In this document: positions 1,990 to 38,413 of the stretch, piece by piece
Layout: every line of letters begins with the position of its first letter
How positions within the stretch are numbered: position 1 is the first letter of the stretch
IMG/VR virus record: IMGVR_UViG_2547132278_000018
DNA from: a virus
Taxonomy: Duplodnaviria > Heunggongvirae > Uroviricota > Caudoviricetes
Length of the DNA: 40,135 nt
Direction: 5' to 3' (one strand)
Position numbers and translations under genes: made by a program
Notes under the pieces: model-generated
Seen by the model: the letters and a program-made list of their open reading frames with translations, nothing else
What the model was told of the DNA's origin: nothing
Database searches by the model: none

Positions 1990-3153
1990 TTACACATCAT
2001 TAGTACCTTCCTTATTTTTTGACTGGGACAAATTTGGGACCGATGGGTTCAGGATCGAGTCTATTTGCCGTGCGTGTTCGGTAAGGTGATTAGGTGCAAG
2101 GTGAGCATATCGACGAACCATTTCGATAGACTCCCAACCTCCCATTTCCTGTAACACTGACAACGGGACTCCGGCTTGAACCAGCCAACTTGCCCAGGTG
2201 TGTCTCAAGTCGTGAAATCTGAAATCATCAATATCAGCCCGTCTCAGCGCCGCTTTCCAGGCTGTGTTTGCGTCATACCGCATCTTCCTTACTGTTGGCG
2301 CTTTCGTTCCGTCTGGTTTGGTACAGCTTTCCTTGTACACAAATACCCAACGGTGATGATTCCCGATTTGTTTTTTCAATACGCGACATGCAGTATCATT
2401 CAGCGCAACGCCAATTGCGCGGTTTGATTTACTCTCTTCCGGGTTTATCCATGCCACCCGGCGCTGCATATCTATTTGTTGCCATTCAAGGTTGATGATG
2501 TTCGAGCGTCTTAAGCCTGTTGCCAGTGCAAATTCAACAACAGACTTTAATGGCTCCGGACATTCATCAATCAGCCTTTGTGCTTCATGGGGCTCCAGCC
2601 AGCGGATCCGTTTATTCTTTGGTTGAGGCACTTTAATAATTGGTGCCTTATCCAGCATTTTCCATTCACGCTCTGCGGCTCTTAGTAGGGCCTTTATAAA
2701 TGAAAGATGCGTAGCCTTCGTTGCAACGGACGCTGGTTTTGGCGTGTATTCTGGAACAGGTTTCCCTTTTTTTCTGCATGCTTCTGCCCTGAGTTTCCAG
2801 TTTTCCTCATGACGCCGGTTTGTCATTTTCTGCATTGCTGAATAAATTTTTGATTCAGTAATGTCTCTTAGTTGCATTCCTGCGAAATGTTGAAGCCAGA
2901 ATCCGATCCGGCTTTTGTCATCGTCCAGTGATTTTTTATGTGCTTTCTCTTCAAGCCACCTGACACACGCTTCCTCGAACGTTATATCAGGTATTTCACC
3001 AAGTTTGCTGACCCGCCATGCTTCAGCCTTTAGCTTGTCATGGAGTTCTGTCGCCTGCCTTTTGTCCTTTGTTCCAAGAGACTGTTTAAATCTTTTACCG
3101 TTCGGCAATGTGAAACTGGCGTACCATATTTCACCTCTGCGGAAGAGTGACAT
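1990..3153 (-). CDS. int: P22-type phage integrase
   Basis: 387 aa starting [31 protein letters not shown]...; closely resembles phage P22 Int as recalled; C-terminus abuts the thrW core. Confidence 0.93.
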
Positions 3154-4047: not shown

Positions 4048-4574
4048 TTGCGTAACTCCGATAACTCGTTAAAGCGTTCCATAAACATCCCGTAGGCATG
4101 GCCCGGTGCCAGTGGAATCACGTTGAACATCTCTGTTGCCGGGATACCTTCCAGTACAGGCCAGAAAGAGCCATCATCAAGCCCGAGATCGCGGCGTTCG
4201 GTTGCCAGCATGATGAGATCGGCATATTTCACGGGCGTACTCATAACTGGGGGTAACCTGTATTTCTCACGGATTACGGCGTCTATTTTTTCTTCCATTT
4301 GTTTATAGTCAGGAAGAAGGCGTTTCAGTGGTGCGGGAATGTCCTGACAATACGCTTCTGTTGCATCATGCATTAACGCTTCGAAAGCAAACTCCTGCGG
4401 TACCAGCTGGCTGCAAAGCACCGCATGTTGGGCGACGCTGTAGAAGTGTGAAAGATGCCCTGCAAAGCGACAGATATTTGAGAGGGAAACTGCGATATCG
4501 TTAATCACGATGTCGTCTTTATTTATCCTGTCATAATAAAAATGCTTCCCGGAAAAAGTTTTAATAAATGACAT
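4038..4574 (-). CDS. HD-domain phosphohydrolase (YfdR-like 5'-deoxynucleotidase)
   Basis: Start chosen at MSFIKTF with GGAGA RBS; H..H and HD motifs (SVAQHAVLCSQ, LMHDATEAY). Family from recall. Confidence 0.7.
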   Translation of the reverse strand: MSFIKTFSGKHFYYDRINKDDIVINDIAVSLSNICRFAGHLSHFYSVAQHAVLCSQLVPQEFAFEALMHDATEAYCQDIPAPLKRLLPDYKQMEEKIDAVIREKYRLPPVMSTPVKYADLIMLATERRDLGLDDGSFWPVLEGIPATEMFNVIPLAPGHAYGMFMERFNELSELRKCA

Positions 4575-5591: not shown

Positions 5592-5954
5592 TTAACGACC
5601 TGCTGCGCGGAGTTTTCCGTCAGGTTTACCGGCAAGAGTCAGTAACTGTCCCTGGTCTTCCTGCAGAATAGTCAGGCGACCACCGCGATTGACATACATC
5701 GGCGTTTCGGTGGTGTCTTCTTCGGAAATTTTCCCGCGGTTAGTCGGGCGAACATATGAGAGTTTGTGTTTGATTTTCACACGGTTCTCATCAAATGGTT
5801 CGATTTCCAGGTTGAGTGAGACCTTACCTTTGGTTTTCGTGTTCATCACACCGGAAGCGACTTCACTGAGAACTGCGCCGATTTTGGTTTCAAATACGCC
5901 GCCGTCCAGCTCCCCGATAAATGCCTGCACATCAGTACTGCGTTCGCTAGCCAT
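5592..5954 (-). CDS. YfdP-like prophage protein
   Basis: Start taken at MASERSTDV (GAGGAG RBS 9 nt upstream); the longer track ORF (to 6272) has an Arg-rich non-protein-like extension. Confidence 0.6.
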   Translation of the reverse strand: MASERSTDVQAFIGELDGGVFETKIGAVLSEVASGVMNTKTKGKVSLNLEIEPFDENRVKIKHKLSYVRPTNRGKISEEDTTETPMYVNRGGRLTILQEDQGQLLTLAGKPDGKLRAAGR

Positions 5955-6002
5955 TTTGCTGCTCCTCATCATATCGACCCTGCAAGGACGATTAGTTTCT
6001 CC

Positions 6003-6091
6003 ACAAAACAGAGAAGAACACCTGCGGTGGCAGCCGCCCGGATGGATTGGGTTATGAGCCCGTCGTCCGGTGATGCTCTTCTCTGTTTTGT
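6003..6091. repeat. Perfect 15-bp inverted repeat (ACAAAACAGAGAAGA / TCTTCTCTGTTTTGT) enclosing 59 bp, in the leader of the early-left operon
   Basis: Read directly: arm 1 at 6003-6017, arm 2 at 6077-6091, exact reverse complements. Confidence 0.7.
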
Positions 6092-6392
6092 AAAAAGGAC
6101 GGTACCAGCCGGAAGCAAGGGTACAAACTGGTACCGCCAAGACTACATACAGCATAAAGTTGTGGTGCCGGGTGCCTCCCGGTGCCTGGCGAAGGTTGCA
6201 CACCAGACGGGTGGGTATCCACAGAAGGTCGACTGTCAGCCTCAACCTTAACCCGCGTGCGCTGAGCCGCATTCACCACAACGCTAAGGATTCTCTTTGG
6301 TTGAAAATACTTAGCTGTTATGTGCCTGTCTTTTCACCACTTCAGGCTCGGTGGTATCTTGGTGTTTTCATATAGCCAAGAAGGAAATAGTT

Positions 6393-6584
6393 ATGACCAA
6401 AGAAGAAAAAATTCTTTATTTATTCCAACTATCGGTTAAGACTCACACTGCATATCAGACTGCTGCCATGACATCAGATAAAAATTACAGTACGTCAGAA
6501 AACCCGATAGACGACATAAGCAAGCTTTACGATAAGTTCGAAGCACTACTCGATAAAAAGTTTGCTGAGGCTGGGCTTGAGTGA
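6393..6584 (+). CDS. Small hypothetical protein (63 aa), AT-rich
   Basis: ATG preceded by AAGGA at about 9 nt; MTKEEKILYLFQLSVKTHTAYQ...; converges on and overlaps the 3' end of the 6546-6722 ORF. Confidence 0.35.
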   Translation: MTKEEKILYLFQLSVKTHTAYQTAAMTSDKNYSTSENPIDDISKLYDKFEALLDKKFAEAGLE

Positions 6585-6722
6585 TTGTTGAATAATCGAC
6601 AAAACCCAACTTAAATTTTCGTCAGTGGGCTCGATGCCATGTGCGGTGAGCTCACTTTTCAAAACTCCAAGTAATTCAGAGCTGATTTTCAATATATCTG
6701 CTTGATTTCTAACTATTCCCAC
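6546..6722 (-). CDS. Small hypothetical protein (58 aa from GTG; 68 aa if ATG at 6752), first gene downstream of putative pL
   Basis: GGGAGG then GTG 6 nt downstream; the longer form has an Arg-rich N-terminus (MTARRPREEK). Confidence 0.35.
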   Translation of the reverse strand: MGIVRNQADILKISSELLGVLKSELTAHGIEPTDENLSWVLSIIQQSLKPSLSKLFIE

Positions 6723-6924
6723 TTTTTCCTCCCTTGGTCTACGCGCGGTCATGTTTTACGCCCAAACGACTTCACAGTTATTGTTTAAAATCTGGACTTT
6801 CATTTCATACACCTGCTTTAACATGAGTGCCTGGTGGCACAACATGACTCAACGAATCATCCTGGACTTCATATGCCCCAGGCGGCTACTTCGTGGGCGT
6901 CCTGCCTGTTCGTTATCTTTGATA

Positions 6925-6960
6925 TAAAATCTAACTTAACTTAGTTATTATGGCAAGAGA
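6925..6960 (-). promoter_or_regulatory. Putative pL promoter with overlapping operator (OL)
   Basis: Minus strand: TTGCCA, 17-nt spacer, TAGATT; operator-like CTAACTTAACTTAG (6931-6944) and further CTTAG half-sites at 6971-6997. Confidence 0.4.
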
Positions 6961-7009
6961 AAACACCAAACTTTTCTTAGTTCGGTGCCTTAGTTAGAGA
7001 AGAGAGGTC

Positions 7010-7636
7010 TTAGAGTTCGTATTGAACTCCTTTGACTACACCAATGATAAGGCAATTACCATTGATAGGGATGTTGGGATACCGAGGATTTAATGGCACT
7101 AAAAACTTTTGAGGGCCATCGATGACTAATTTTTTTACTGTAGCTTCGTTTGTTCCATCAAGTCGAGCGATGACTATTTTTCCATGACGAGGTTCTGCAT
7201 CTGGATCTACAATCACTGTTGCGCCTTCTGGTATTGTTGGGAGGCCATTAGGGTTAGTCATGGAGTCACCTTTAACCTCTAATGCAAATGAGTTATCACC
7301 AATCTTTAATGATGTATCTACCCACTTGTCCACTTCACTAAACACTTCTGCTGCCCTGCACTCAGTAAACTGCCCAGCCTGAACCCACGATATTACAGGA
7401 ACTCTGCGCATGTTTGTGACGAGTTTGCCTTCAAACTCAGCACCATAAAGAATGTAATCTATTGACGTATTGAAGAACTTCGCTAATTTCGAAAGCGCCT
7501 CCCCACCAGGGGTATTGATGTCTTTCTCCCAGTACCCCACAGCAACGTCGCTTACTCCACAAAATTTACCCAATTCTTTCTGGGACGTTCCGGTAACTCT
7601 TCTCAGAGCTTTTATACGCTGACCAACCGTTTCCAT
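7010..7636 (-). CDS. CI-type phage repressor (HTH plus S24 LexA-like peptidase domain)
   Basis: 208 aa; N-terminal HTH (QKELGKFCGVSDVAVGYWE), C-terminal autocleavage-type domain (GDSM...K); divergent from the cro-like gene. Confidence 0.9.
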   Translation of the reverse strand: METVGQRIKALRRVTGTSQKELGKFCGVSDVAVGYWEKDINTPGGEALSKLAKFFNTSIDYILYGAEFEGKLVTNMRRVPVISWVQAGQFTECRAAEVFSEVDKWVDTSLKIGDNSFALEVKGDSMTNPNGLPTIPEGATVIVDPDAEPRHGKIVIARLDGTNEATVKKLVIDGPQKFLVPLNPRYPNIPINGNCLIIGVVKGVQYEL

Positions 7637-7658: not shown

Positions 7659-7721
7659 CTAAGTAATCTTAGTTTTTATTGACCAAAGATAGATTTGTAA
7701 TTAGCATCTAATAAAACTTAG
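7659..7721 (+). promoter_or_regulatory. Putative pR promoter and OR operators
   Basis: TTGACC (7679-7684), 17 nt, TAGCAT (7702-7707); flanking palindromic sites CTAAGTAATCTTAG (7659-7672) and CTAATAAAACTTAG (7708-7721); GGAGGG RBS before cro ATG at 7734. Confidence 0.5.
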
Positions 7722-7733
7722 TTTGGAGGGCGT

Positions 7734-7934
7734 ATGACAACTGACGATATCGAAAGCTACTTCGGCAGTATTGAGAAAGTTGCTGCTTTTTTCGGCATAA
7801 CAACTGAAGCCGTTTATCAGTGGCGAAACCGTCCGGGCCAGTTAATTCCAAAAGGACGTGCAGCAGAAGCTGCATATAGAACTTGCGGACGGTTGCCATT
7901 TAAACCTGAGCTTTATGAAAAATCTAATGGATAA
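7734..7934 (+). CDS. Cro/YdaS-like small HTH regulator
   Basis: 66 aa; first gene of the rightward operon, divergent from cI. Confidence 0.75.
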   Translation: MTTDDIESYFGSIEKVAAFFGITTEAVYQWRNRPGQLIPKGRAAEAAYRTCGRLPFKPELYEKSNG

Positions 7935-23989: not shown

Positions 23990-24546
23990 AACTGACGCCT
24001 GTTATTGCTGCGCTGCGTGCCCGCTGCCCGTATTTTGAAAACCGGGTGGCAGGCGCGGCACAGTTCAAAAATCTGCCGGAGGTCGGAAAGCTGAGACTCC
24101 CGGCGGCGTATGTGGTACCGGGTGATGACTCTCCGGGAGAAAACAAAAGCCAGACCGACTACTGGCAGGAGCTGAAAGAGGGCTTCTCCGTGGTTGTCAT
24201 ACTGAGTAACGGGCGTGATGAGCGCGGTCAGTTTGCCTCGTATGATGTGGTGGACGATGTCCGGCAGATGCTCTTTAAGGCCCTGCTGGGCTGGAACCCG
24301 GAAGCGTGCGGTAACCCGATTACCTATGACGGCGGCACGCTGCTGGATCTGAATCGTCATGAGCTGATTTATCAGTTCGATTTTTCGGTCATCAGCGAGC
24401 TGACTGAAGACGATACCCGCCAGCAGGATGATCTGAACAGTCTGGATGAACTGCAAACGCTGGCGATTGATGTTGATTATCTCGAGCCCGGTAACGGGCC
24501 TGACGGCGATATCGAACATCACACCGAAATAACCCTTCCTTCCTGA
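23986..24546 (+). CDS. Tail-associated protein (tail terminator/completion candidate)
   Basis: 186 aa, acidic C-terminus. Confidence 0.55.
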   Translation: MKLTPVIAALRARCPYFENRVAGAAQFKNLPEVGKLRLPAAYVVPGDDSPGENKSQTDYWQELKEGFSVVVILSNGRDERGQFASYDVVDDVRQMLFKALLGWNPEACGNPITYDGGTLLDLNRHELIYQFDFSVISELTEDDTRQQDDLNSLDELQTLAIDVDYLEPGNGPDGDIEHHTEITLPS

Positions 24547-24554
24547 GAATCTTC

Positions 24555-24725
24555 ATGTTTGTGAAACCTGTTAAAGGGCGGTCAGTGCCTGACCCTGCCC
24601 GCGGTGACCTTTTGCCCGTCGAAGGGCGAAATGTTGACGAGAACAACTACTGGCTGCGCCGTGAAGCAGCGGGTGATATCCGGCGCGTGAATAAAAAGGT
24701 GAACACCGATGACGATAAGCTTTAA
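24555..24725 (+). CDS. Small conserved protein upstream of tail sheath (DUF2635-like), missed by the ORF track
   Basis: ATG at 24555, 56 aa: MFVKPVKGRSVPDPARGDLLPVEGRNVDENNYWLRREAAGDIRRVNKKVNTDDDKL. Confidence 0.45.
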   Translation: MFVKPVKGRSVPDPARGDLLPVEGRNVDENNYWLRREAAGDIRRVNKKVNTDDDKL

Positions 24726-26205
24726 CACCATTCCGTCGAATACGCTGGTTCCGCTGTTTTATGCGGAAATGGATAACCAGGCGGCGAATACTGCACAGGA
24801 CAGCGGAGCATCGCTGCTGATTGGTCATGCCAATAACGGTGCAGAGATTGTTGCCAACAGTCTGGTACTGATGTCGTCGGCAGACTATGCACGCCAGATT
24901 TGTGGTGCGGGAAGTCAGCTGGCGCGTATGGTCGAGGCTTATCGCCAGACTGACCCGTTTGGCGAGCTGTATGTGATTGCCGTTCCTGAATCCACAGGCG
25001 CGGCGGCAACGGTTACGCTGACGGTGACCGGGGCGGCAACCGAAACCGGCACGGTGAATGTGTATGTGGGACGTACCCGCGTGCAGGCACCGGTGACTAA
25101 CGGCGATAACGTCACGATGATTGCCAGCAGTATCCAGGATGCCATCAATGCCGTTCCGACCCTGCCGTTTACGGCTTCATCTTCGGCAGGCGTGGTCACA
25201 CTGACCGCGCGTCATAAGGGGCTTTGCGGGAATGAAATTCCTGTCAGCCTCAATTACTACGGCTTTGGTGGGGGCGAAGTGCTGCCAGCGGGCGTACAGA
25301 TTGCCGTGGCGACGGGTACCGCCGGAACGGGTGCTCCGGTTCTCACCGGCGCGGTGGCTGCAATGGCGGATGAGCCGTTTGATTATATCGGCCTGCCGTT
25401 CAACGACACGGCCTCCGTTAACACGCTGGTGACCGAGATGAACGATACCAGCGGTCGCTGGAGCTATGCGCGTCAGCTGTACGGTCATGTGTATACGGCA
25501 AAGATCGGCACGCTGTCAGAACTGGTGACCGCTGGTGACCAGTTTAACCAGCAGCACATTACCCTGGCGGGGTACGAAAAAGAGACCCAGACGCCTGCCG
25601 ACGAGCTGGCGGCAAGCCGTACCGCCCGCGCAGCGGTGTTTATCCGCAACGATCCGGCACGTCCCACGCAGACCGGTGAGCTGGTGGGTATGCTGCCTGC
25701 GCCGAAGGGGAAACGGTTCACGATGACCGAGCAGCAGACCCTGTTGTCTCATGGCGTGGCAACGGCGTATGTCGAAAGCGGGGTGCTGCGCATTCAGCGT
25801 GATGTCACCACGTACAGGAAAAATTCTTACGGGGTTGCGGATAACAGCTACCTCGACAGCGAGACGCTGCATACCAGTGCGTATGTACTGCGCAAACTGA
25901 AATCCGTCATTACCAGTAAGTACGGGCGTCACAAGCTTGCCAGCGACGGTACCCGCTTTGGTCCCGGTCAGGCGATTGTCACCCCGGCGGTAATCAAAGG
26001 GGAACTGCTGGCAACCTACCGTCAGCTTGAGCGTGCGGGGATCGTGGAAAACTACGAACTGTTTAAGCAGTACTTGGTTGTGGAGCGTGATGCCAGCGAT
26101 CCGAACCGCCTGAACACGCTGTTCCCGCCTGACTATGTTAACCAGTTGCGTGTTTTTGCCGTGGTTAACCAGTTCCGTCTTCAGTATTCAGAGGAGTCTG
26201 CATAA
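24709..26205 (+). CDS. Tail sheath protein (Mu-like contractile tail)
   Basis: 498 aa, followed by tube gene. Confidence 0.85.
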   Translation: MTISFNTIPSNTLVPLFYAEMDNQAANTAQDSGASLLIGHANNGAEIVANSLVLMSSADYARQICGAGSQLARMVEAYRQTDPFGELYVIAVPESTGAAATVTLTVTGAATETGTVNVYVGRTRVQAPVTNGDNVTMIASSIQDAINAVPTLPFTASSSAGVVTLTARHKGLCGNEIPVSLNYYGFGGGEVLPAGVQIAVATGTAGTGAPVLTGAVAAMADEPFDYIGLPFNDTASVNTLVTEMNDTSGRWSYARQLYGHVYTAKIGTLSELVTAGDQFNQQHITLAGYEKETQTPADELAASRTARAAVFIRNDPARPTQTGELVGMLPAPKGKRFTMTEQQTLLSHGVATAYVESGVLRIQRDVTTYRKNSYGVADNSYLDSETLHTSAYVLRKLKSVITSKYGRHKLASDGTRFGPGQAIVTPAVIKGELLATYRQLERAGIVENYELFKQYLVVERDASDPNRLNTLFPPDYVNQLRVFAVVNQFRLQYSEESA

Positions 26206-26561
26206 TGGCCCGTATCGGGGGAACCTGTTATTTCAAAATTGACGGTCAGCAGCTATCGCTGACCGGCGGCATTGAGGTGCCCATGAACAGGACGGTCAAT
26301 GATGACATCATCGGCCTGGACGGTTCAGTGGACCGCAAGGAAACTCACCGTGCGCCTTATGTCAAAGGGACCTTCAAGGTGCCGAAGAATTTTCCGGTGA
26401 GCAAAATCACCTCGTCTGATGAGATGACCATCACTGCTGAGCTGGCGAACGGTCAGGTCTATGTATTGTCGTCAGCCTGGCTGCACGGCGAAGCGAACCA
26501 TAATGCCGAAGAAGGCACGGTTGATCTTGAGTTCCACGGTGAAGAAGGGGATTACCAGTAA
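26205..26561 (+). CDS. Tail tube protein
   Basis: 118 aa, start overlaps sheath stop. Confidence 0.8.
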   Translation: MARIGGTCYFKIDGQQLSLTGGIEVPMNRTVNDDIIGLDGSVDRKETHRAPYVKGTFKVPKNFPVSKITSSDEMTITAELANGQVYVLSSAWLHGEANHNAEEGTVDLEFHGEEGDYQ

Positions 26562-26830
26562 TGAAAGAGCTTGAGTTAAAGAAACCGATTACCGCTCATG
26601 GCGAGACACTCTCCGTACTGGAGTTTGATGAGCCCACCGGGAAAGATGTCCGCGAGCTGGGGTATCCCTACCAGATGAATCAGGATGAGTCCGTCAGACT
26701 TCTGGCGCATGTTGTATCGAAATACATTGTGCGGCTGGCGAAAGTGCCGCAAAGCTCTGTCGACCAGATGTCTCCGGCAGACCTGAATGCAGCGGCGTGG
26801 CTTGTGGCTGGTTTTTTCCTCCAGGCCTGA
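26561..26830 (+). CDS. Tail assembly chaperone (G); -1 frameshift extension to 26985 (GT-like)
   Basis: 89 aa; slippery T-TTT-TTC at 26812-26818 in the zero frame; -1 frame continues FFPPGLTAEYLTDRFF... to 26985. Confidence 0.7.
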   Translation: MKELELKKPITAHGETLSVLEFDEPTGKDVRELGYPYQMNQDESVRLLAHVVSKYIVRLAKVPQSSVDQMSPADLNAAAWLVAGFFLQA

Positions 26831-26971
26831 CGGCTGAATACCTCACTGATCGCTTCTTTGACTGCGCCAGCTACTGGCGCATTAATCCCTTCGAATTGCT
26901 GAATATGCCGATCAGTGAAATTCCCTTGCTGGTCAGTCAGGCAAACAGGATAGAGCAGGAGAAACGCGCAC

Positions 26972-28804
26972 ATGGCGGAATTTGAGCTTAAGGCGTTGAT
27001 CACCGGTGTCGACAGGCTTTCTCCCGCGCTGTCGAAAATGCAAAAGAAAATCCGGGGATTTAAACGCCAGGCGGAAGAAGCGTCACAGGGTGGGCTGGCG
27101 CTTGGAGGCGGACTGGCAGCGGGTCTGACGCTTTCCCTGAAATCTTATGCCGATCAGGAAAACGCCGCCACCGGGCTGAAAGTCGCCATGATGGATGCGA
27201 ACGGCGAGGTTGGAAAGAGCTTTCAGGACATCAATAAACTGGCTATTGGCCTGGGTAATCAGCTACCCGGTACAACGGCTGATTTCCAGAACATGATGCA
27301 GATGCTGGTGCGTCAGGGGATCCCGGCAGAAAACATTCTTGGCGGTGTGGGTAAAGCGACAGCTTATCTTGCGGTACAACTGAAAAAAACACCGGAAGCG
27401 GCTGCCGAGTTTGCCGCAAAGATGCAGGATGCTACCGGAACGGCGTCAAAAGACATGATGGGGCTGTTCGACACTATCCAGAAGGCGTTTTATCTGGGCG
27501 TTGACGATACCAACATGTTGTCCTTCTTCACTAAAACCAGCTCTGTTCTGAAGATGGTGAACAAGGACGGTCTTCAGGCTGCACAGAGCCTTGCCCCCAT
27601 CAGCGTCATGATGGATCAGATGGGGATGAACGGGGAGTCGGCAGGTAACGCCCTGCGAAAAGTTATCCAGTCCGGATTAAGCGTTAAGAAAATCAGGGAC
27701 GTCAATAAAATCATGGCCCGCCAGAAACTCGGGGTACAGCTCGATTTTACTGACGGCAAAGGGAGTTTTGGCGGTCTTGATAACATGTTCAGGCAACTGG
27801 CAAAGCTGCGAAAACTGACCGACGTTAAGCGAACAGGCGTACTTAAGGCAATATTTGGTGATGATGCCGAAACCCTTCAGGTGGTCAATGCACTAATCGA
27901 TAAAGGAAAGGATGGCTACGATCAGATCCAGCAGAAGATGAATAAACAGGCCAGCCTGAATAAACGTGTTCAGGCTCAGCTTGGTACGCTGTCCAACCTG
28001 TGGGAGGCAATGACGGGGACCGCAACTAACGGTCTTGCAGCTATTGGCGGCGCATTTTCTGGTGACGCCAAAAATATCACGCAGTGGCTGGGGGAGTTGG
28101 GGGAGAAATTCACGAAGTTTGCGGATGAAAACCCCCGGGTTATTCGCGGCGTCGTCGGGCTTGCTGCCGGTCTTGCGATTCTGAAACTGGGATTGATGGG
28201 CGTGGGCAGTGCCATCAGTATTGTCAGCAGGATTATGTCGATGACGCCGATTGGCATGATTGCGACGGCGATTGCTCTGGCTGCGGGATTAATTATCACT
28301 AACTGGGATGTTGTCGGACCTTATTTTAAGAAGCTCTGGGAAACCATTGGTCCTTATTTTGAGGCTGGCTGGGAACTTCTGAAGAAGGTTTTTGCCTGGT
28401 CGCCGCTGGGGATGGTGATCAAAAACTGGGGACCGGTTGTTAAGTGGTTTCAGGATATGTGGGATAAGCTGAAGCCAATTATTGAGTGGTTTACCGACAG
28501 TTCCGGTGACACGGTCGATGCCATTAACTCTGCGCAGTGGGGCGCGGGTGCTTATGATGCTTATGGGACGGGAATACCGGCGCGGGGATACACACCTTAT
28601 CCGGCGGTAGATCTGGCTCAGTCAAACAACGCCTCCGATGCCACAGGCCCGAATCCCTTCATGATTAACAAAGCTTCTGCGCCAAAAGTTGATGGTGAGA
28701 TCAAGGTATCATTTATAAATATGCCACCAGGTATGCGGGTTACGGAAACACGCTCCAGTGGCATTGATATAAATCACGATGTTGGCTATACCCGATTTTG
28801 GTAG
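26972..28804 (+). CDS. Tape measure protein
   Basis: 610 aa, Ala/Gly-rich with hydrophobic segment. Confidence 0.9.
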   Translation: MAEFELKALITGVDRLSPALSKMQKKIRGFKRQAEEASQGGLALGGGLAAGLTLSLKSYADQENAATGLKVAMMDANGEVGKSFQDINKLAIGLGNQLPGTTADFQNMMQMLVRQGIPAENILGGVGKATAYLAVQLKKTPEAAAEFAAKMQDATGTASKDMMGLFDTIQKAFYLGVDDTNMLSFFTKTSSVLKMVNKDGLQAAQSLAPISVMMDQMGMNGESAGNALRKVIQSGLSVKKIRDVNKIMARQKLGVQLDFTDGKGSFGGLDNMFRQLAKLRKLTDVKRTGVLKAIFGDDAETLQVVNALIDKGKDGYDQIQQKMNKQASLNKRVQAQLGTLSNLWEAMTGTATNGLAAIGGAFSGDAKNITQWLGELGEKFTKFADENPRVIRGVVGLAAGLAILKLGLMGVGSAISIVSRIMSMTPIGMIATAIALAAGLIITNWDVVGPYFKKLWETIGPYFEAGWELLKKVFAWSPLGMVIKNWGPVVKWFQDMWDKLKPIIEWFTDSSGDTVDAINSAQWGAGAYDAYGTGIPARGYTPYPAVDLAQSNNASDATGPNPFMINKASAPKVDGEIKVSFINMPPGMRVTETRSSGIDINHDVGYTRFW

Positions 28805-28895
28805 CCAGAATTCCCCTCACAGGTATTGCTGGTTGTAAGTCATAAATAGAGTGATAGAATTAATGCACATTTAGAAAAATGTTAATAGGCGAAAA

Positions 28896-29426
28896 ATGAA
28901 AGGCTATATCACAGCAAGTGTAATTCTTGGAGCAGCGGCTGTTTTTTCATCTCTCATAATCTCTGGCAACATCTCCTTTAAAGATGAACATATTATTCAG
29001 TTATCTGGAGGAGCCATAAAACTTGGTGATGTTTATAAAGAAAATAAATTGATAAGTGCAAAGATTATTTTTCCAGATAATCAGGGTGAACAGATTCTTG
29101 TTGTCGACGGCAATCCTGAAAACTTTAAGGAGGATTTTCAGGAGAAATTAAATAAAGTAATAAAAACTTTAAATGCGTCAAAGAAAAAAGATGAAGAGAA
29201 AGTTAGCCTGGATAATTTAAGTGTTATTGAAGAGTCTAAACTAGAGCTCGTTTCTGCGGTGCGTTACTCTGCTCAGTATGTTCCTATGTTTACTCTGACG
29301 CTGGACAAAAAAGAAATTACCATGCCTAAAAATACGGTAATATTTCCATTTGCCAGCGATGAAACAGCTAAGTATTTAAATGAACAACAGCAAAAGTATA
29401 AAGATTCGTTGTTTCTGACTCGCTAA
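28896..29426 (+). CDS. Moron: AT-rich 176-aa membrane-anchored/secreted protein of unknown function
   Basis: N-terminal hydrophobic segment (YITASVILGAAAVFSSLIISG), Lys/Glu-rich remainder; much lower GC than flanking tail genes (by eye); own terminator. Confidence 0.65.
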   Translation: MKGYITASVILGAAAVFSSLIISGNISFKDEHIIQLSGGAIKLGDVYKENKLISAKIIFPDNQGEQILVVDGNPENFKEDFQEKLNKVIKTLNASKKKDEEKVSLDNLSVIEESKLELVSAVRYSAQYVPMFTLTLDKKEITMPKNTVIFPFASDETAKYLNEQQQKYKDSLFLTR

Positions 29427-29445
29427 TTAATAAAATTCATTACAA

Positions 29446-29476
29446 GGCCACTTTCTAATAGGTGGCTTTTTTATTT
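29446..29476 (+). terminator. Rho-independent terminator
   Basis: GGCCAC-TTTCTAATAG-GTGGC followed by TTTTTTATTTT. Confidence 0.65.
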
Positions 29477-29481
29477 TCGGA

Positions 29482-30816
29482 GTGTATATGACGTGGAAAG
29501 ACAGGCTTCAGGATGCGTCATTTCGAGGTGTGCCGTTTAAGGTTGAAGAAGAAAGTGCGGGAACCGGCCGTCGTGTGGAAACACACGAATATCCGAACCG
29601 CGACAAACCCTATACCGAAGATCTGGGAAAAGTCACTTTCCGCCCGTCCATCACGGCTTATGTGGTGGGAGATGACTGCTTTGACCAGCGCGATCGCCTG
29701 ATTGAAGCGCTGAATAAACCCGGTCCCGGCACGCTTGTCCACCCGACATATGGTGAGCTGAAAGTCTGTGTTGACGGGGAAGTTCGGGTCAGCACATCGA
29801 AAAGTGAAGGGCGTATTGTCCGCTTTGACCTGAAGTTTGTCGAAGCAGGAGAACTCTCTTACCCCACATCAGGTGCGGCGACGGCGCAGACGCTGATGTC
29901 ATCCTGTTCTGCACTGGATGACTGCATCAGTGACAGCTTCAGCGGTTTCAGTATCGATGGTGTGGCGGATTTCGTGCAGAACGACGTTATCGGTAATGCC
30001 AGCATAATGCTGGGGTATGTTTCTGATGCCATGAAAGTGGTGGATTCTGCCGTATCGGATGCCGCCAGGCTGTTGCAGGGGGATATCTCGGTACTTCTGC
30101 CGCCGCCATCGTCAGGCAAAAATTTCGTTGAGCAGGTGCAGAAAATGTGGCGTACCGGGAAACGCCTTTATGGTAACGCCAGCGACCTGGTCACCATGAT
30201 CAAAACGCTTTCCGGTGTCAGCCTCGGCAGCGATCTGCAACCGCGCGGCGTCTGGAAAACGGACAGTAAAACCACCGCCACGGCGACGCAGCAGCGTAAC
30301 GTGGTTGCCAGCACCCTTCGTACGACCGCAATCAGCGAAGCGGCGTATGCCGTCACCCGATTGCCTGCGCCAACAACTTCCGCGGTGATGCAGAATTCCG
30401 CAGTGGGGCAGGCAACAACAACCGCGCAGAGCACTGGCTGGCCTTCCGTCACGCATCCGGCACTAAACAATGCATCGGCGGTGAAAAACACGGTTGACCT
30501 GCCGACGTGGGAAGAACTGACTGACATTCGCGACACACTGAATACGGCAATTGATAAGGAGTTGTCCCGTACAACCAGTGATGCGCTGTTTCTGGCGCTG
30601 CGCCGGGTGAAAGCAGATCTGAATGCGGATATCAACACGCGCCTTGAACAGTCTGCACGGATCATTCAGCGCACACCGGATGAGGTTTTACCCGCGCTGG
30701 TGCTGGCGGCTACCTGGTTTGATAACGCGGCGCGTGACGCGGACATTATCCGGCGTAATGCCATTACGCATCCCGGCTTTGTGCCGGTGATCCCTCTGAA
30801 GGTGCCAGTGCAATGA
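29482..30816 (+). CDS. DNA circularisation protein (Mu gpN-like)
   Basis: 444 aa, MTWKDRLQDASFRGVPFKVEEES... N-terminus. Confidence 0.8.
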   Translation: MYMTWKDRLQDASFRGVPFKVEEESAGTGRRVETHEYPNRDKPYTEDLGKVTFRPSITAYVVGDDCFDQRDRLIEALNKPGPGTLVHPTYGELKVCVDGEVRVSTSKSEGRIVRFDLKFVEAGELSYPTSGAATAQTLMSSCSALDDCISDSFSGFSIDGVADFVQNDVIGNASIMLGYVSDAMKVVDSAVSDAARLLQGDISVLLPPPSSGKNFVEQVQKMWRTGKRLYGNASDLVTMIKTLSGVSLGSDLQPRGVWKTDSKTTATATQQRNVVASTLRTTAISEAAYAVTRLPAPTTSAVMQNSAVGQATTTAQSTGWPSVTHPALNNASAVKNTVDLPTWEELTDIRDTLNTAIDKELSRTTSDALFLALRRVKADLNADINTRLEQSARIIQRTPDEVLPALVLAATWFDNAARDADIIRRNAITHPGFVPVIPLKVPVQ

Positions 30817-31892
30817 ACGACAATGTCACGCTACGGGTAAATGGCCGGGAGTGGAATGGCTGGACATCGGTGCGCATCGGTGCCGGTATTGAACGGCTGG
30901 CGCGGGATTTCAGTGTGGAGATCACTCGCCAGTGGCCGGGAGATGAGGGTATCACCACGCTTCAGCCGCGCATTAAAAACGGTTCAAAAGTGAAAGTGCT
31001 GATTGGTGATGAGCTGGTGATCACCGGCTGGGTGGAGGCGACTCCCGTTCGTTACGATGCCCGTTCGGTCAGCACCGGTATTGCCGGACGTAGTCTGACG
31101 GCTGACCTGATTGACTGTGCAGCCGAACCGACACAGTTTAACGGACGCTCGCTGGTGCAGATTGCGCAGGCGCTTGCTGCGCCTTTCGGCATTGAGGTGG
31201 TGAACAGCGGTGCGCCGTCGGGTGTTATTCCTGATGTTCAGCCTGATCACGGCGAAACGGTGATCGAGGTGATCAACAAAATACTCGGTCAGCAGCAGGC
31301 ACTGGCTTACGACGACCCGCATGGCAGGCTGGTGATTGGCGGTATTGGCTCAACGCGGGCACATACCGCGCTGGTACTTGGGGAAAACATCCTTTCCTGT
31401 GATACGGAGAAGAGTATCCGGGAGCGGTTTTCAGTTTACCAGGTGGCGGGGCAGCGTGCCGGAAATGACGATGATTTCGGTGAGGCCACCACCACCGCGC
31501 TGCGGGCCCGCACAGAAGACGCATTTATTGCCCGTTACCGTCCGATGTATATCAGGCAGACAGGGCAGGCTACGGGGGCAGGCTGTATTGCCCGTGCGGA
31601 CTTTGAAGCCCGGCAACGGGCGGCGCGGACGGATGAAACCACCTATGTGGTGCAGGGCTGGCGACAGGGTAACGGTACGCTGTGGCAACCCAACCAGCGG
31701 GTGATTGTCTTCGATCCGGTCTGTGGTTTCGACAATACCGAACTGCTTGTCTCGGAAGTCACGTTTACTCAGGACCAGAACGGCACCCTGACGGAAATCC
31801 GTGTCGGCCCACCTGATGCTTATCTGCCTGAACCCGAAGCCCCCGGCGCGCGGAAAAAGAAAAAAGCCAGAGTACAGGAGGACCCGTTCTGA
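30813..31892 (+). CDS. Baseplate hub protein (Mu gpP-like)
   Basis: 359 aa, position. Confidence 0.75.
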   Translation: MNDNVTLRVNGREWNGWTSVRIGAGIERLARDFSVEITRQWPGDEGITTLQPRIKNGSKVKVLIGDELVITGWVEATPVRYDARSVSTGIAGRSLTADLIDCAAEPTQFNGRSLVQIAQALAAPFGIEVVNSGAPSGVIPDVQPDHGETVIEVINKILGQQQALAYDDPHGRLVIGGIGSTRAHTALVLGENILSCDTEKSIRERFSVYQVAGQRAGNDDDFGEATTTALRARTEDAFIARYRPMYIRQTGQATGAGCIARADFEARQRAARTDETTYVVQGWRQGNGTLWQPNQRVIVFDPVCGFDNTELLVSEVTFTQDQNGTLTEIRVGPPDAYLPEPEAPGARKKKKARVQEDPF

Positions 31893-38269: not shown

Positions 38270-38352
38270 CTAACCCTTTGAATTTACATAGCGCAAAAAG
38301 ATACCTTTCCTCATAATGTGAGCTAATTTTATGTTTCGTTTGATGATCGGGT

Positions 38353-38413
38353 CGGTCTCGAAAACCGGAGTAGGGGCAACTCTACCGGGGGTTCAAATCC
38401 CCCTCTCTCCGCC
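38353..38413 (+). other. tRNA-Ser (serU-type) 3' fragment, about 61 nt, ending CCA - att-core-like repeat, not an intact tRNA
   Basis: GGTCTCGAAAACCGGAGTAGGGGCAACTCTACCGGGGGTTCAAATCCCCCTCTCTCCGCCA matches the serU 3' portion from memory; upstream does not match the tRNA 5' half. Confidence 0.8.

Follow-up and report, generated by a model that had tools for sequence, protein, structure and literature searches.

We analyzed a 40,135-nucleotide (nt) stretch of DNA (called the window throughout; IMG/VR record IMGVR_UViG_2547132278_000018), which is a lambdoid prophage of the SfV/SfII/SfIV/ST64B type lying next to tRNA-Thr, and in particular the kilobase between its cI-type repressor gene and yfdP (positions 5955-7009). 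The main result is an apparently undescribed and widespread family of leader RNA, encoded just downstream of the early-left promoter pL, for which antitermination independent of an N protein appears to be the most likely role. The early-left direction is the minus strand of the window, and the kilobase is the promoter-proximal, mostly untranslated part of the pL operon, built as a string of separately exchangeable modules that stand in a fixed order. Three of its noncoding segments are conserved far past close relatives, and two of them carry compensatory base changes. An earlier note on this DNA, made from the letters alone, had proposed an RNA-based antitermination element for this region, or a small-protein exclusion or toxin-antitoxin-like pair, or both. 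The features that it listed were all found again, and its interpretation is partly supported, the region being rich in conserved RNA structure in the form of the leader RNA, an STnc100-like small RNA (sRNA), and a long-stem junction.

When positions 6745-6930 were used as a BLAST query, a core of about 60 nt after pL was found to be conserved well past close relatives, with matches in Salmonella SPN3UB, SEN34, and ST64B, in Klebsiella, Yersinia YeP1-3, Pantoea AH07, Citrobacter, Pectobacterium ZF40, and mEp237, and also in T5-like Providencia phages. A first alignment of only a few relatives already showed compensatory changes in this core. Members of the family were then collected by means of a 17-nt seed, GCCCACGAAGTAGCCGC, and 42 distinct sequences were aligned (alignment A3). 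In the window, helix P1 comprises 6 bp (6914-6909 / 6856-6851), P2 is a GGC/GCC helix (6906-6904 / 6898-6896) whose loop holds GGA in all members, and P3 comprises 5 bp (6882-6878 / 6865-6861) closed by a 12-nt loop and followed by J3/1, AUGA. The 13-nt segment J2/3 (CACGAAGUAGCCG, 6895-6883) is invariant among the collected members, the seed by which they were collected itself covering J2/3.

In alignment A3, 94.6% of the cells were paired, as opposed to at most 42% in slid controls, and 10 of the 14 pairs showed changes on both sides. The covariation score was 0.543 versus 0.10 or less in all slid controls, and none of 500 shuffles reached the observed value. P1, P2, and P3 were recovered independently by RNAalifold. 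Across the seed-collected members, the helices of the leader RNA covary and its junction nucleotides are constant. The earlier note had pointed to 6753-6920 as an interval in which covariation should be sought, and what the interval holds is a strongly covarying, promoter-proximal RNA at 6916..6849.

A covariance model built from the leader-RNA alignment (R1) gave the window copy 90.6 bits; run over the whole 40-kb window with filters off, it detected no second copy, and none in the pR operon. The leader RNA was unmatched in Rfam 15 when the 121-nt stretch 6820-6940 was searched, even at E <= 10, and no description of either the leader motif or the long-stem junction was found in Rfam 15 or in the searchable literature. 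The leader motif therefore appears to be an undescribed RNA family.

The family further includes prophages of Xenorhabdus, Photorhabdus, and Serratia, and all its bearers are phages of the Enterobacterales. The 17-mer was present in at least 120 IMG/VR contigs, with one leader match per viral contig, and the motif was present in 1483 of 5426 complete Escherichia coli genomes (27%); in 11 of 12 sampled E. coli rows, no annotated feature lay beneath the match. Loci from the genome collection were re-scored with R1, by which 18 of 100 were true matches, all from the Enterobacterales (Phytobacter, Xenorhabdus, Photorhabdus, Enterobacter, Serratia, Leclercia, Pantoea, Kosakonia, Rouxiella, and E. 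coli). The other re-scored loci failed R1 and were set aside as chance matches of the 17-mer, of which the collection gave many in GC-rich genomes.

Examination of the loci revealed a recurrent genomic setting. The motif lies directly after a cI-type repressor gene, facing the early-left genes, in SfV, SfII, ST64B, SPN3UB, and ZF40, and in the T5-like phage PR1 it heads the operon carrying the A2 and A1 DNA-transfer genes, inside the terminal repeat. A good sigma-70 promoter, defined as one with at least 9 of 12 consensus matches, was found within 100 nt upstream of the motif at 69 of 125 distinct loci, and in 46 of these 69 the -10 element ends 14-17 nt before P1, so that the RNA begins about 7-10 nt into the transcript. 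Phage mEp237, at first an apparent exception, has its own TTGACT-17-TTTACT promoter right before the motif. These adjacent promoters also supply the orientation assigned to the leader RNA. The genes downstream of the motif differ widely from locus to locus, and the motif is therefore not the leader of any single gene.

Further conserved sequence accompanies the motif in some groups. ST64B-type leaders (L007 2230-2500; L018, L022, L061, L095, L105) have about 250 nt of extra conserved sequence past the motif, with long-range complementarity GGUGUCUUCGGGAGGGG ... CCCCGCCCGAAGAUACC, which may be another large structured RNA; in ST64B itself, no ORF (open reading frame) is annotated in the approximately 450 nt between cI and the STnc100-like element. 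A small hairpin of the form AACGUUCCGC-loop-GCGAUAAGG recurs after the motif in L009, L035, L074, L117, L252, and L253, and the same hairpin stands before the motif in L020, L034, and L041. Its counterpart in ZF40-type leaders (L010, L025, L104) carries a GAAAGA loop on a stem that covaries (GCCG/CGGC versus GCGG/CUGC) and is boxB-like.

The earlier note had seen no recognizable N-type gene in the region, and this was borne out. No member of the N family was detected by Pfam or PHROGs among the ORFs between cI and yfdP, nor among the early-left genes as named by the Prokaryotic Genome Annotation Pipeline (PGAP), these names being taken from the annotation of an enterotoxigenic E. coli (ETEC) genome that is 100% identical across query 5900-7050. 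Among 110 motif-bearing loci, only about 7-8 have a recognizable N-like or Nun-like protein near the motif. Many lambdoid phages are without an N gene, including the Shigella serotype-converting phages SfV, SfII, and SfIV and Salmonella ST64B, and in the searchable literature we found no worked-out account of how early-left terminators are read through in such phages; to our knowledge, HK022 put is the only worked-out RNA solution for early-left read-through without N. For phage LLS, in which N is absent, put-like RNA antitermination has been suggested (PMC12315714). LLS and the window have 62 nt of the long-stem junction in common.

Between pL and the early-left genes, the window has a strong terminator and an untranslated stretch of about 600 nt. 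Of 109 loci, 72 had a predicted sense-strand intrinsic terminator within 2 kb downstream of the motif, many of these being in the range of -17 to -23 kcal/mol. Among 59 distinct leader types, 10 have a boxA (CGCUCUUUA, at most one mismatch) past the motif, whereas 0.4 were expected and the maximum in 200 shuffles was 4. It usually lies about 30 nt past the motif with a small hairpin between, and 9 nt past the motif in the T5-like phage, which suggests Nus-factor antitermination without N in the boxA-bearing phages, including the virulent T5-like one. The boxes, in the form CGCUCUUUAAAAAU or the rrn-like GCUCUUUAACAAU, were seen in PR1 (L011 2570-2600) and in L016, L051, L063, L084, L118, L174, L207, and L227, and in an SfV-like group the hairpin between motif and boxA is AAGCGCCCUACAGGACGCUU.

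Because of this promoter proximity and link to boxA, we favor a transcriptional role, and the reading we prefer, tentatively and at somewhat less than an even chance, is that the leader RNA serves in cis as a nut/put-like element, independent of N, by which transcription from pL becomes resistant to termination. The junction RNA would act on the very polymerase that transcribes it, with or without the help of host Nus factors, and would thereby stand in for a nut or put site with no N protein involved. That the junction and loop nucleotides are constant although the phage genes downstream differ suggests a host partner rather than a phage-specific protein. The elongation complex would withstand Rho along the untranslated stretch of roughly 600 nt and would then read through the -20 kcal/mol terminator (6138..6092), allowing the genes from yfdP to xis to be expressed after induction. 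The STnc100-like RNA might be released by termination or processing, in the way that the dicB operon of Qin yields DicF, and the long perfect stem past the terminator would be a likely RNase III-type processing or stabilizing element. The small ORFs would be cargo genes outside the control circuit. The leader RNA is a concrete and unannotated candidate for the device that serves early-left expression in N-less lambdoid phages.

A number of observations weigh against this proposal. Taken as a single sequence, the leader RNA is not unusually stable (z = -1.0) and its predicted fold differs inside P1; since that fold is not significant, the case for the structure rests on covariation. The wobble cells of A3 (5 G-U versus 7 A-C) do not fix the strand. 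The leader of the window has no boxA within two mismatches. About a fifth of the bearers do have one, and L048 encodes an N-like protein directly downstream of its motif. With an N-like gene or a boxA in some bearers, the motif is not a simple substitute for either, and a boxA would be redundant if the motif sufficed alone. At 37 of 109 loci, including PR1 and the SPN3UB/mEp237 types, no sense terminator was predicted within 2 kb, and predicted terminators are in fact denser on the antisense strand (0.99 per kb versus 0.54 per kb sense). Unlike putL/putR or nutL/nutR, the motif occurs once per phage and is absent from the pR operon, and it is unrelated to HK022 put by sequence or fold.

The few N-family neighbors can be described further. 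N-like (phrog_271) or Nun-like proteins are encoded directly downstream of the motif in L054, L048, L149, and L152, so that the motif can coexist with N-family proteins, and the Nun-like protein ends in ...DAMHKVVNHAHQ, as does HK022 Nun.

Table 1. Features of the region between yfdP and cI and of its flanks, in window coordinates
Feature	Position	Strand	Description
yfdP, first early-left gene past the RNA modules	5592..5954	-	PGAP 'protein YfdP'; phrog_204
Long-stem three-way-junction RNA	5998..6096	-	20-bp stem 6091-6072 / 6022-6003 closing two inner hairpins
STnc100/PasD-like sRNA	6089..6304	-	RF02076 match over the full model (1-206), 40.6 bits, E = 1.7e-7
Intrinsic terminator (predicted)	6092..6138	-	13-bp stem 6138-6126 / 6110-6098, then CUUUUU 6097-6092; -20.5 kcal/mol, z = -3.4
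Conserved hairpin and 40-nt block	6315..6381	- (as drawn)	Adjoins ribosome-binding site of the plus-strand ORF; sequence conservation, covarying arms
63-amino-acid ORF directed against pL	6393..6584	+	phrog_2605, annotated function unknown; SfII_36, WP_000159356.1
First pL ORF, 68 amino acids	6546..6752	-	58 amino acids from GTG 6722 after GGGAGG 6733-6728; phrog_15476, annotated function unknown; moron-type
pL leader three-way-junction RNA, ~62 nt	6849..6916	-	Covariation; starts ~7 nt past predicted pL start
pL (predicted)	6928..6956	-	-35 TTGCCA 6956-6951, 17-nt spacer, -10 TAGATT 6933-6928 (consensus scan); predicted start ~6921
Operator palindrome CTAACTTAACTTAG	6931..6944		Form CTAA-N5-CTTAG; overlaps pL -10
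cI-type repressor gene	7010..7636	-	HTH_3 and Peptidase_S24 domains; PGAP 'LexA family protein'; upstream boundary of the region
cro	7734-7934	+	Context
CII-like gene	–	+	Domain scan

The remaining features of the region are collected in Table 1. The putative pL with an overlapping operator that had been placed at 6925-6960 was recovered as a promoter at 6956-6928 and a palindrome at 6931-6944. Exact copies of CTAA-N5-CTTAG are also present at 7659-7672 and 7708-7721, around pR/pRM, and a copy at 6967-6980 has a single mismatch; when at most one mismatch was allowed, the window had 11 matches versus 4.9 expected.

At its distal end, the pL leader region contains two further RNA modules. In 5955-6400, which the earlier note had likewise named for a covariation analysis, the analysis brought out an STnc100-like sRNA with its terminator and, built on the inverted repeat, a covarying long-stem junction. 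The sRNA match falls below the gathering score of RF02076 (40.6 versus 47 bits), but a relative that is 96% identical (L049) scored 49.1 bits, above the threshold. Other sub-threshold STnc100-like copies in pL operons were found in Rac-SA53 (43.8 bits), in a Klebsiella phage (35 bits), and in L017 (34.9 bits), which has two canonical STnc100 copies elsewhere. Judged by its sequence, the window sRNA is a borderline STnc100 member in an unusual operon, and an sRNA of the STnc100/PasD type is thereby placed in the early-left operon. A promoter scan reported no minus-strand site in that stretch that could serve the sRNA as its own promoter, and by eye the stretch offers a weak candidate, AAGACA-17-TATTTT (8/12). 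At 6138..6092, a G+C-rich hairpin is followed by a U-tract, as expected of an intrinsic terminator, and the equivalent site in the SfV record is annotated as a putative rho-independent terminator. DicF (RF00039) was considered and rejected, the match (17.7 bits versus a threshold of 48) being to the terminator hairpin only. In Rac-SA53 (L006 2637-2870), a DicF-like match of 41.1 bits (threshold 48) stands directly before the STnc100-like match of 43.8 bits, between the repressor gene and kilR, which suggests that the leftward operons of Rac, Qin, and SfV-type prophages have an 'sRNA zone' in common.

The long-stem junction always lies directly after the terminator U-tract, which pairs with GGAGAAA farther downstream. 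The perfect 15-bp inverted repeat enclosing 59 bp that had been noticed at 6003-6091 is present, with arms at 6003-6017 / 6077-6091; it is the core of a 20-bp stem, and the arms can be extended to 25 nt at 84% complementarity. The RNA fold of the inverted repeat is stable (-51.9 kcal/mol, z = -5.4, with none of 200 shuffles as stable), and one of the inner hairpins holds an invariant GACGGGCUCAUAACCCAAUCC. Its conservation in related prophages was evident from an alignment of 18 diverse long-stem sequences (A4), in which 93.6% of the cells were paired and nine pairs showed compensatory change, while slid controls reached at most 51% paired. The G-U pairs of A4 fit a minus-strand RNA, U-G being found at one position in 17 of the 18 sequences. 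Indels of 1, 4, 5, and 27 nt occur among these sequences and therefore rule out coding. We also considered whether the junction is a leader specific to yfdP. That gene follows at about 38 nt in 39 of 59 loci, but another gene is next in at least 18 of the 59, and the idea was rejected. A perfect 20-bp RNA duplex is a plausible substrate of RNase III. The long-stem module is shared with mEp460, Stx2c phages, and cdtI, which we take to encode N; the homology with these phages breaks at 6140, inside the terminator loop.

In the genome with identity to the window throughout the query, PGAP places a frameshifted hypothetical-protein pseudogene at window positions 5969-6279. The STnc100-like RNA, the terminator, and the long-stem junction together cover this interval, and the call is probably an artifact of earlier ORF calls on structured RNA. 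A stretch annotated as a frameshifted pseudogene is, then, structured RNA.

Between the leader RNA and the sRNA lie two small ORFs. The earlier note had described a minus-strand ORF of 58-68 codons with a GGGAGG ribosome-binding site and a convergent 63-codon plus-strand ORF overlapping it by about 39 bp, and both were found as described (6752..6546 and 6393..6584), their 3' ends overlapping by 39 bp at 6546-6584. Neither gave a Pfam or PADLOC match, and from their translations both proteins were judged by eye to be hydrophilic and to have no membrane segment. The 68-residue ORF is not annotated by PGAP and was found at only 5 of 110 motif-bearing loci, and SfV has an unrelated orf33 in place of the two. 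The initiation regions of the 63-residue (6383-6406) and 58-residue (6697-6720) ORFs resemble each other (GGAAAUAGUUAUGACCAAAGAAGA versus GGGAAUAGUUAGAAAUCAAGCAGA, 71% over 24 nt), which could be chance or a shared control site.

Adjoining the plus-strand ORF is a further conserved noncoding segment, a hairpin followed by a 40-nt block. The hairpin arms (6380-6376 / 6363-6359, CUUGG/CCAAG) covary among relatives (CUUGG/CCAAG, CUGG/CCAG, CCUUU/AAAGG, CCUUA/UAAGG). The 40-nt block (6357-6315) has 90-98% identity in Klebsiella phages and Rac-SA53, and on the minus strand it can be modeled as an H-type pseudoknot, CCAC..GCCUG..GUGG..CAGGC, the stems of which never vary. The hairpin and block were also seen in L005, L006, L026, L061, L090, L098, and L219. 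A sigma-70 promoter of the plus-strand gene within the block was rejected, the putative -10 not being conserved in variants. In 17 sequence contexts, a different small ORF of 63-84 codons, opposite in direction to pL, starts 82-84 nt from the conserved element, and one of these cargoes is a BssS-family protein. From these comparisons, the interval of about 6393-6752 looks like a variable cargo slot with a conserved neighbor, and such a slot, with its conserved leader, is a possible source of prophage host-modifying or exclusion genes.

Readings other than antitermination have to be weighed against this body of evidence. The leader motif could be cleaved off the 5' end of the pL transcript to give an abundant early RNA that titrates or recruits a host protein (CsrA, Hfq, ProQ, or an RNase) or serves as an anti-defense decoy. 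The P2 loop always offers GGA in a short hairpin (AGGAC, AGGAU, AGGAA, AAGGAAA, AUGGA), and the window has CAGGACG and CAGGAUG, which we take to match CsrB-type repeats. Phage early operons are rich in host-takeover and anti-defense functions, and the motif heads early operons of temperate lambdoid and virulent T5-like phages alike. Its junction nucleotides are constant whatever phage proteins neighbor it. We nevertheless regard this role as doubtful. The second GGA is a covarying paired position, replaced by AGA in the ZF40 type and by GAA in mEp237 with compensation on the opposite side, and a dual-GGA CsrA site was rejected for that reason; CsrA would also leave the invariant J2/3 and the P3 loop unexplained. 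No processing site is known, and the fixed promoter distance and the enrichment of boxA just downstream point instead to a co-transcriptional role. A further reading is that the leader RNA is a new class of early phage RNA of temperate lambdoid and virulent T5-like phages, primarily an aptamer or decoy for a conserved host component and not a classical antiterminator, the surrounding boxA and terminators being secondary. We think this decidedly improbable; were it true, the target would be a small molecule, a defense system, or a global RNA-binding protein that the RNA senses or neutralizes within minutes of infection or induction. A compact three-way junction whose helices covary and whose unpaired nucleotides are invariant is also the usual signature of an aptamer, and the first ribosome-binding site lies 20-35 nt past P1 in many phages, so a ligand-sensing, riboswitch-like element gating early-left expression by host state was considered. 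Downstream of the motif, however, there is no consistent terminator or hairpin sequestering a ribosome-binding site, the genes that follow are unrelated, and no Rfam riboswitch matched, which makes a riboswitch very unlikely; an attenuator design was rejected in the same way, a terminator directly after the motif not being consistently present.

Two further readings place the function of the region outside the leader RNA. The functional content could be protein, namely the 63-residue and perhaps the 68-residue gene as exclusion or host-modifying genes in a sieB-like slot or, in a stronger version, a toxin-antitoxin-like pair. Unrelated ORFs of 63-84 codons do stand at a fixed distance from a conserved element in many phages, one cargo is of the BssS family, and both ORFs of the window belong to PHROG families. 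The products, on the other hand, match nothing in PADLOC or Pfam and are hydrophilic, unlike type I toxins; with the 68-residue ORF at so few loci and orf33 in its stead in SfV, they are not conserved as a pair. The toxin-antitoxin-like pair of the earlier note was thus not upheld, no hydrophobic protein, known toxin family, or conserved pairing having been found. The protein reading, which we consider unlikely, leaves unexplained the covarying RNAs that make up most of the region, and it is compatible with antitermination by the leader RNA rather than a replacement for it. Lastly, the conserved blocks might be recombination 'boundary' sequences, or remnants of the frameshifted gene that PGAP called at 5969-6279, with no function at the RNA level. 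Breakpoints do fall at module edges, since similarity to SfII spans 5986-6914, that to mEp460 and Stx2c phages breaks at 6140, and SfV is swapped over 6360-6745. Compensatory changes preserve helices in two of the modules, however, and largely refute recombination as the explanation; the indels in the long-stem junction exclude a reading frame, and part of 5969-6279 matches RF02076, with a sub-threshold score in the window but a passing score in a close relative. Such a reading is scarcely credible.

The wider context of the region is that of an SfV-type prophage. On the minus strand, the gene order is cI, the 1-kb region, yfdP, yfdQ, yfdR, 'phage protein', yfdT, an excisionase-type helix-turn-helix gene, and int, the excisionase-type gene carrying the name xis in SfV/SfII. 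In E. coli K-12 the region is deleted entirely from CPS-53, just the last approximately 40 nt before yfdP being aligned, and because of this deletion K-12 data are uninformative for the region. An Rfam scan of the whole window at the gathering threshold gave zero matches, and permissive scans gave only the sub-threshold STnc100 match and chance matches. Beyond tRNA-Thr (1896-1975) and the prophage int (1990-3153), a second integrase-like ORF of 440 codons lies at 443-1765 on the minus strand; since the ETEC match carries proA/proB at that position, the host of the window has a further integrative element beside the prophage. At 38333-38411, weak overlapping Rfam matches were obtained on both strands (a tRNA-Sec-like match of 27.5 bits and a plastid 3' untranslated region family at 40.9 bits), and ARAGORN reported no tRNA; the site, which is close to the prophage's right end, may be the remnant of an attachment site or a hairpin resembling a tRNA.

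Several modules of the region have counterparts in known systems. In lambda and Rac, sieB lies at an analogous position in reverse orientation, and we presume the variable slot to resemble that position. As with sieB of lambda, P22, and Rac, a small gene directed against pL separates the immunity region from the early-left genes, and the cargo varies by phage; the slot differs in that its cargo proteins have no similarity to SieB and no match to a defense family. The arrangement, in which an sRNA and a terminator precede kil/dicB-type or other early genes inside a leftward operon under repressor control, recalls DicF in the Qin dicB operon, although the window has no DicF homologue. DicF is reportedly released by termination and by RNase III/E processing (as attributed to Faubladier and co-workers, 1990). 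With STnc100 and PasD, the window sRNA has identical core strings, UGGUGAAU and CACCGGGAGGCACCCGGCACCA, and a 3' terminator in common. Canonical STnc100 is found in the late operon, between Q/stx2B and the lysis genes (PMC12370729), and its relative PasD is likewise in the late operon (10.64898/2026.05.13.724894). The copy in the window lies instead between cI and yfdP in the early-left operon, and for this reason we describe it as a variant location.

Antitermination at lambda and P22 nut sites and in rrn leaders uses boxA with boxB and the host factors NusB/NusE, NusA, NusG, and SuhB. The leader RNA occupies the same early-leader position, and the boxA that follows it in the 10 of 59 leader types is sometimes preceded by a hairpin, as in rrn leaders. 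The window itself, in contrast, has no boxB-type hairpin with a GNRA-like pentaloop, no N protein, and no boxA, and the leader motif has no counterpart in nut sites or rrn leaders.

The closest functional parallel is HK022 put. The HK022 type of put element is defined by protein-independent antitermination via the beta' zinc-binding domain of RNA polymerase. Like the put RNAs, which are encoded in cis, are about 60-70 nt long, start within about 10 nt of the pL start, and belong to a phage without a functional N antiterminator (PMC9378689), the leader RNA is a cis-encoded RNA of about 60-70 nt near the pL start in a lambdoid phage without N. The motif begins about 7 nt past the predicted pL start and so lies, as put does, just downstream of an early promoter, and both RNAs have conserved unpaired nucleotides. 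ACGAAC and CAGGAUGA are common to both at similar spacing, which we treat as a lead only. The architectures differ, however. Put consists of two side-by-side stem-loops and the leader RNA is a three-way junction closed by P1, so that CAGGAUGA is a hairpin loop in put and a helix strand plus junction in the leader RNA. We located HK022 putL (L008, ~4243-4316) from the residue numbering in PMC9378689, and R1 gave no match there or in HK022 24000-31000 down to E = 10; MAFFT gave no convincing alignment, only the two short strings being common, and homology to put was rejected. HK022 has two copies, putL and putR, whereas the window has one, at pL only, and some bearers of the leader RNA also have a boxA or an N-like gene. 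The suggestion of an HK022-type put RNA is therefore not sustained, since neither the fold nor the sequence resembles putL/putR, R1 is unmatched on both, and copies are not found in both early operons. The leader RNA may function in the manner of HK022 put, but it does not belong to the put family.

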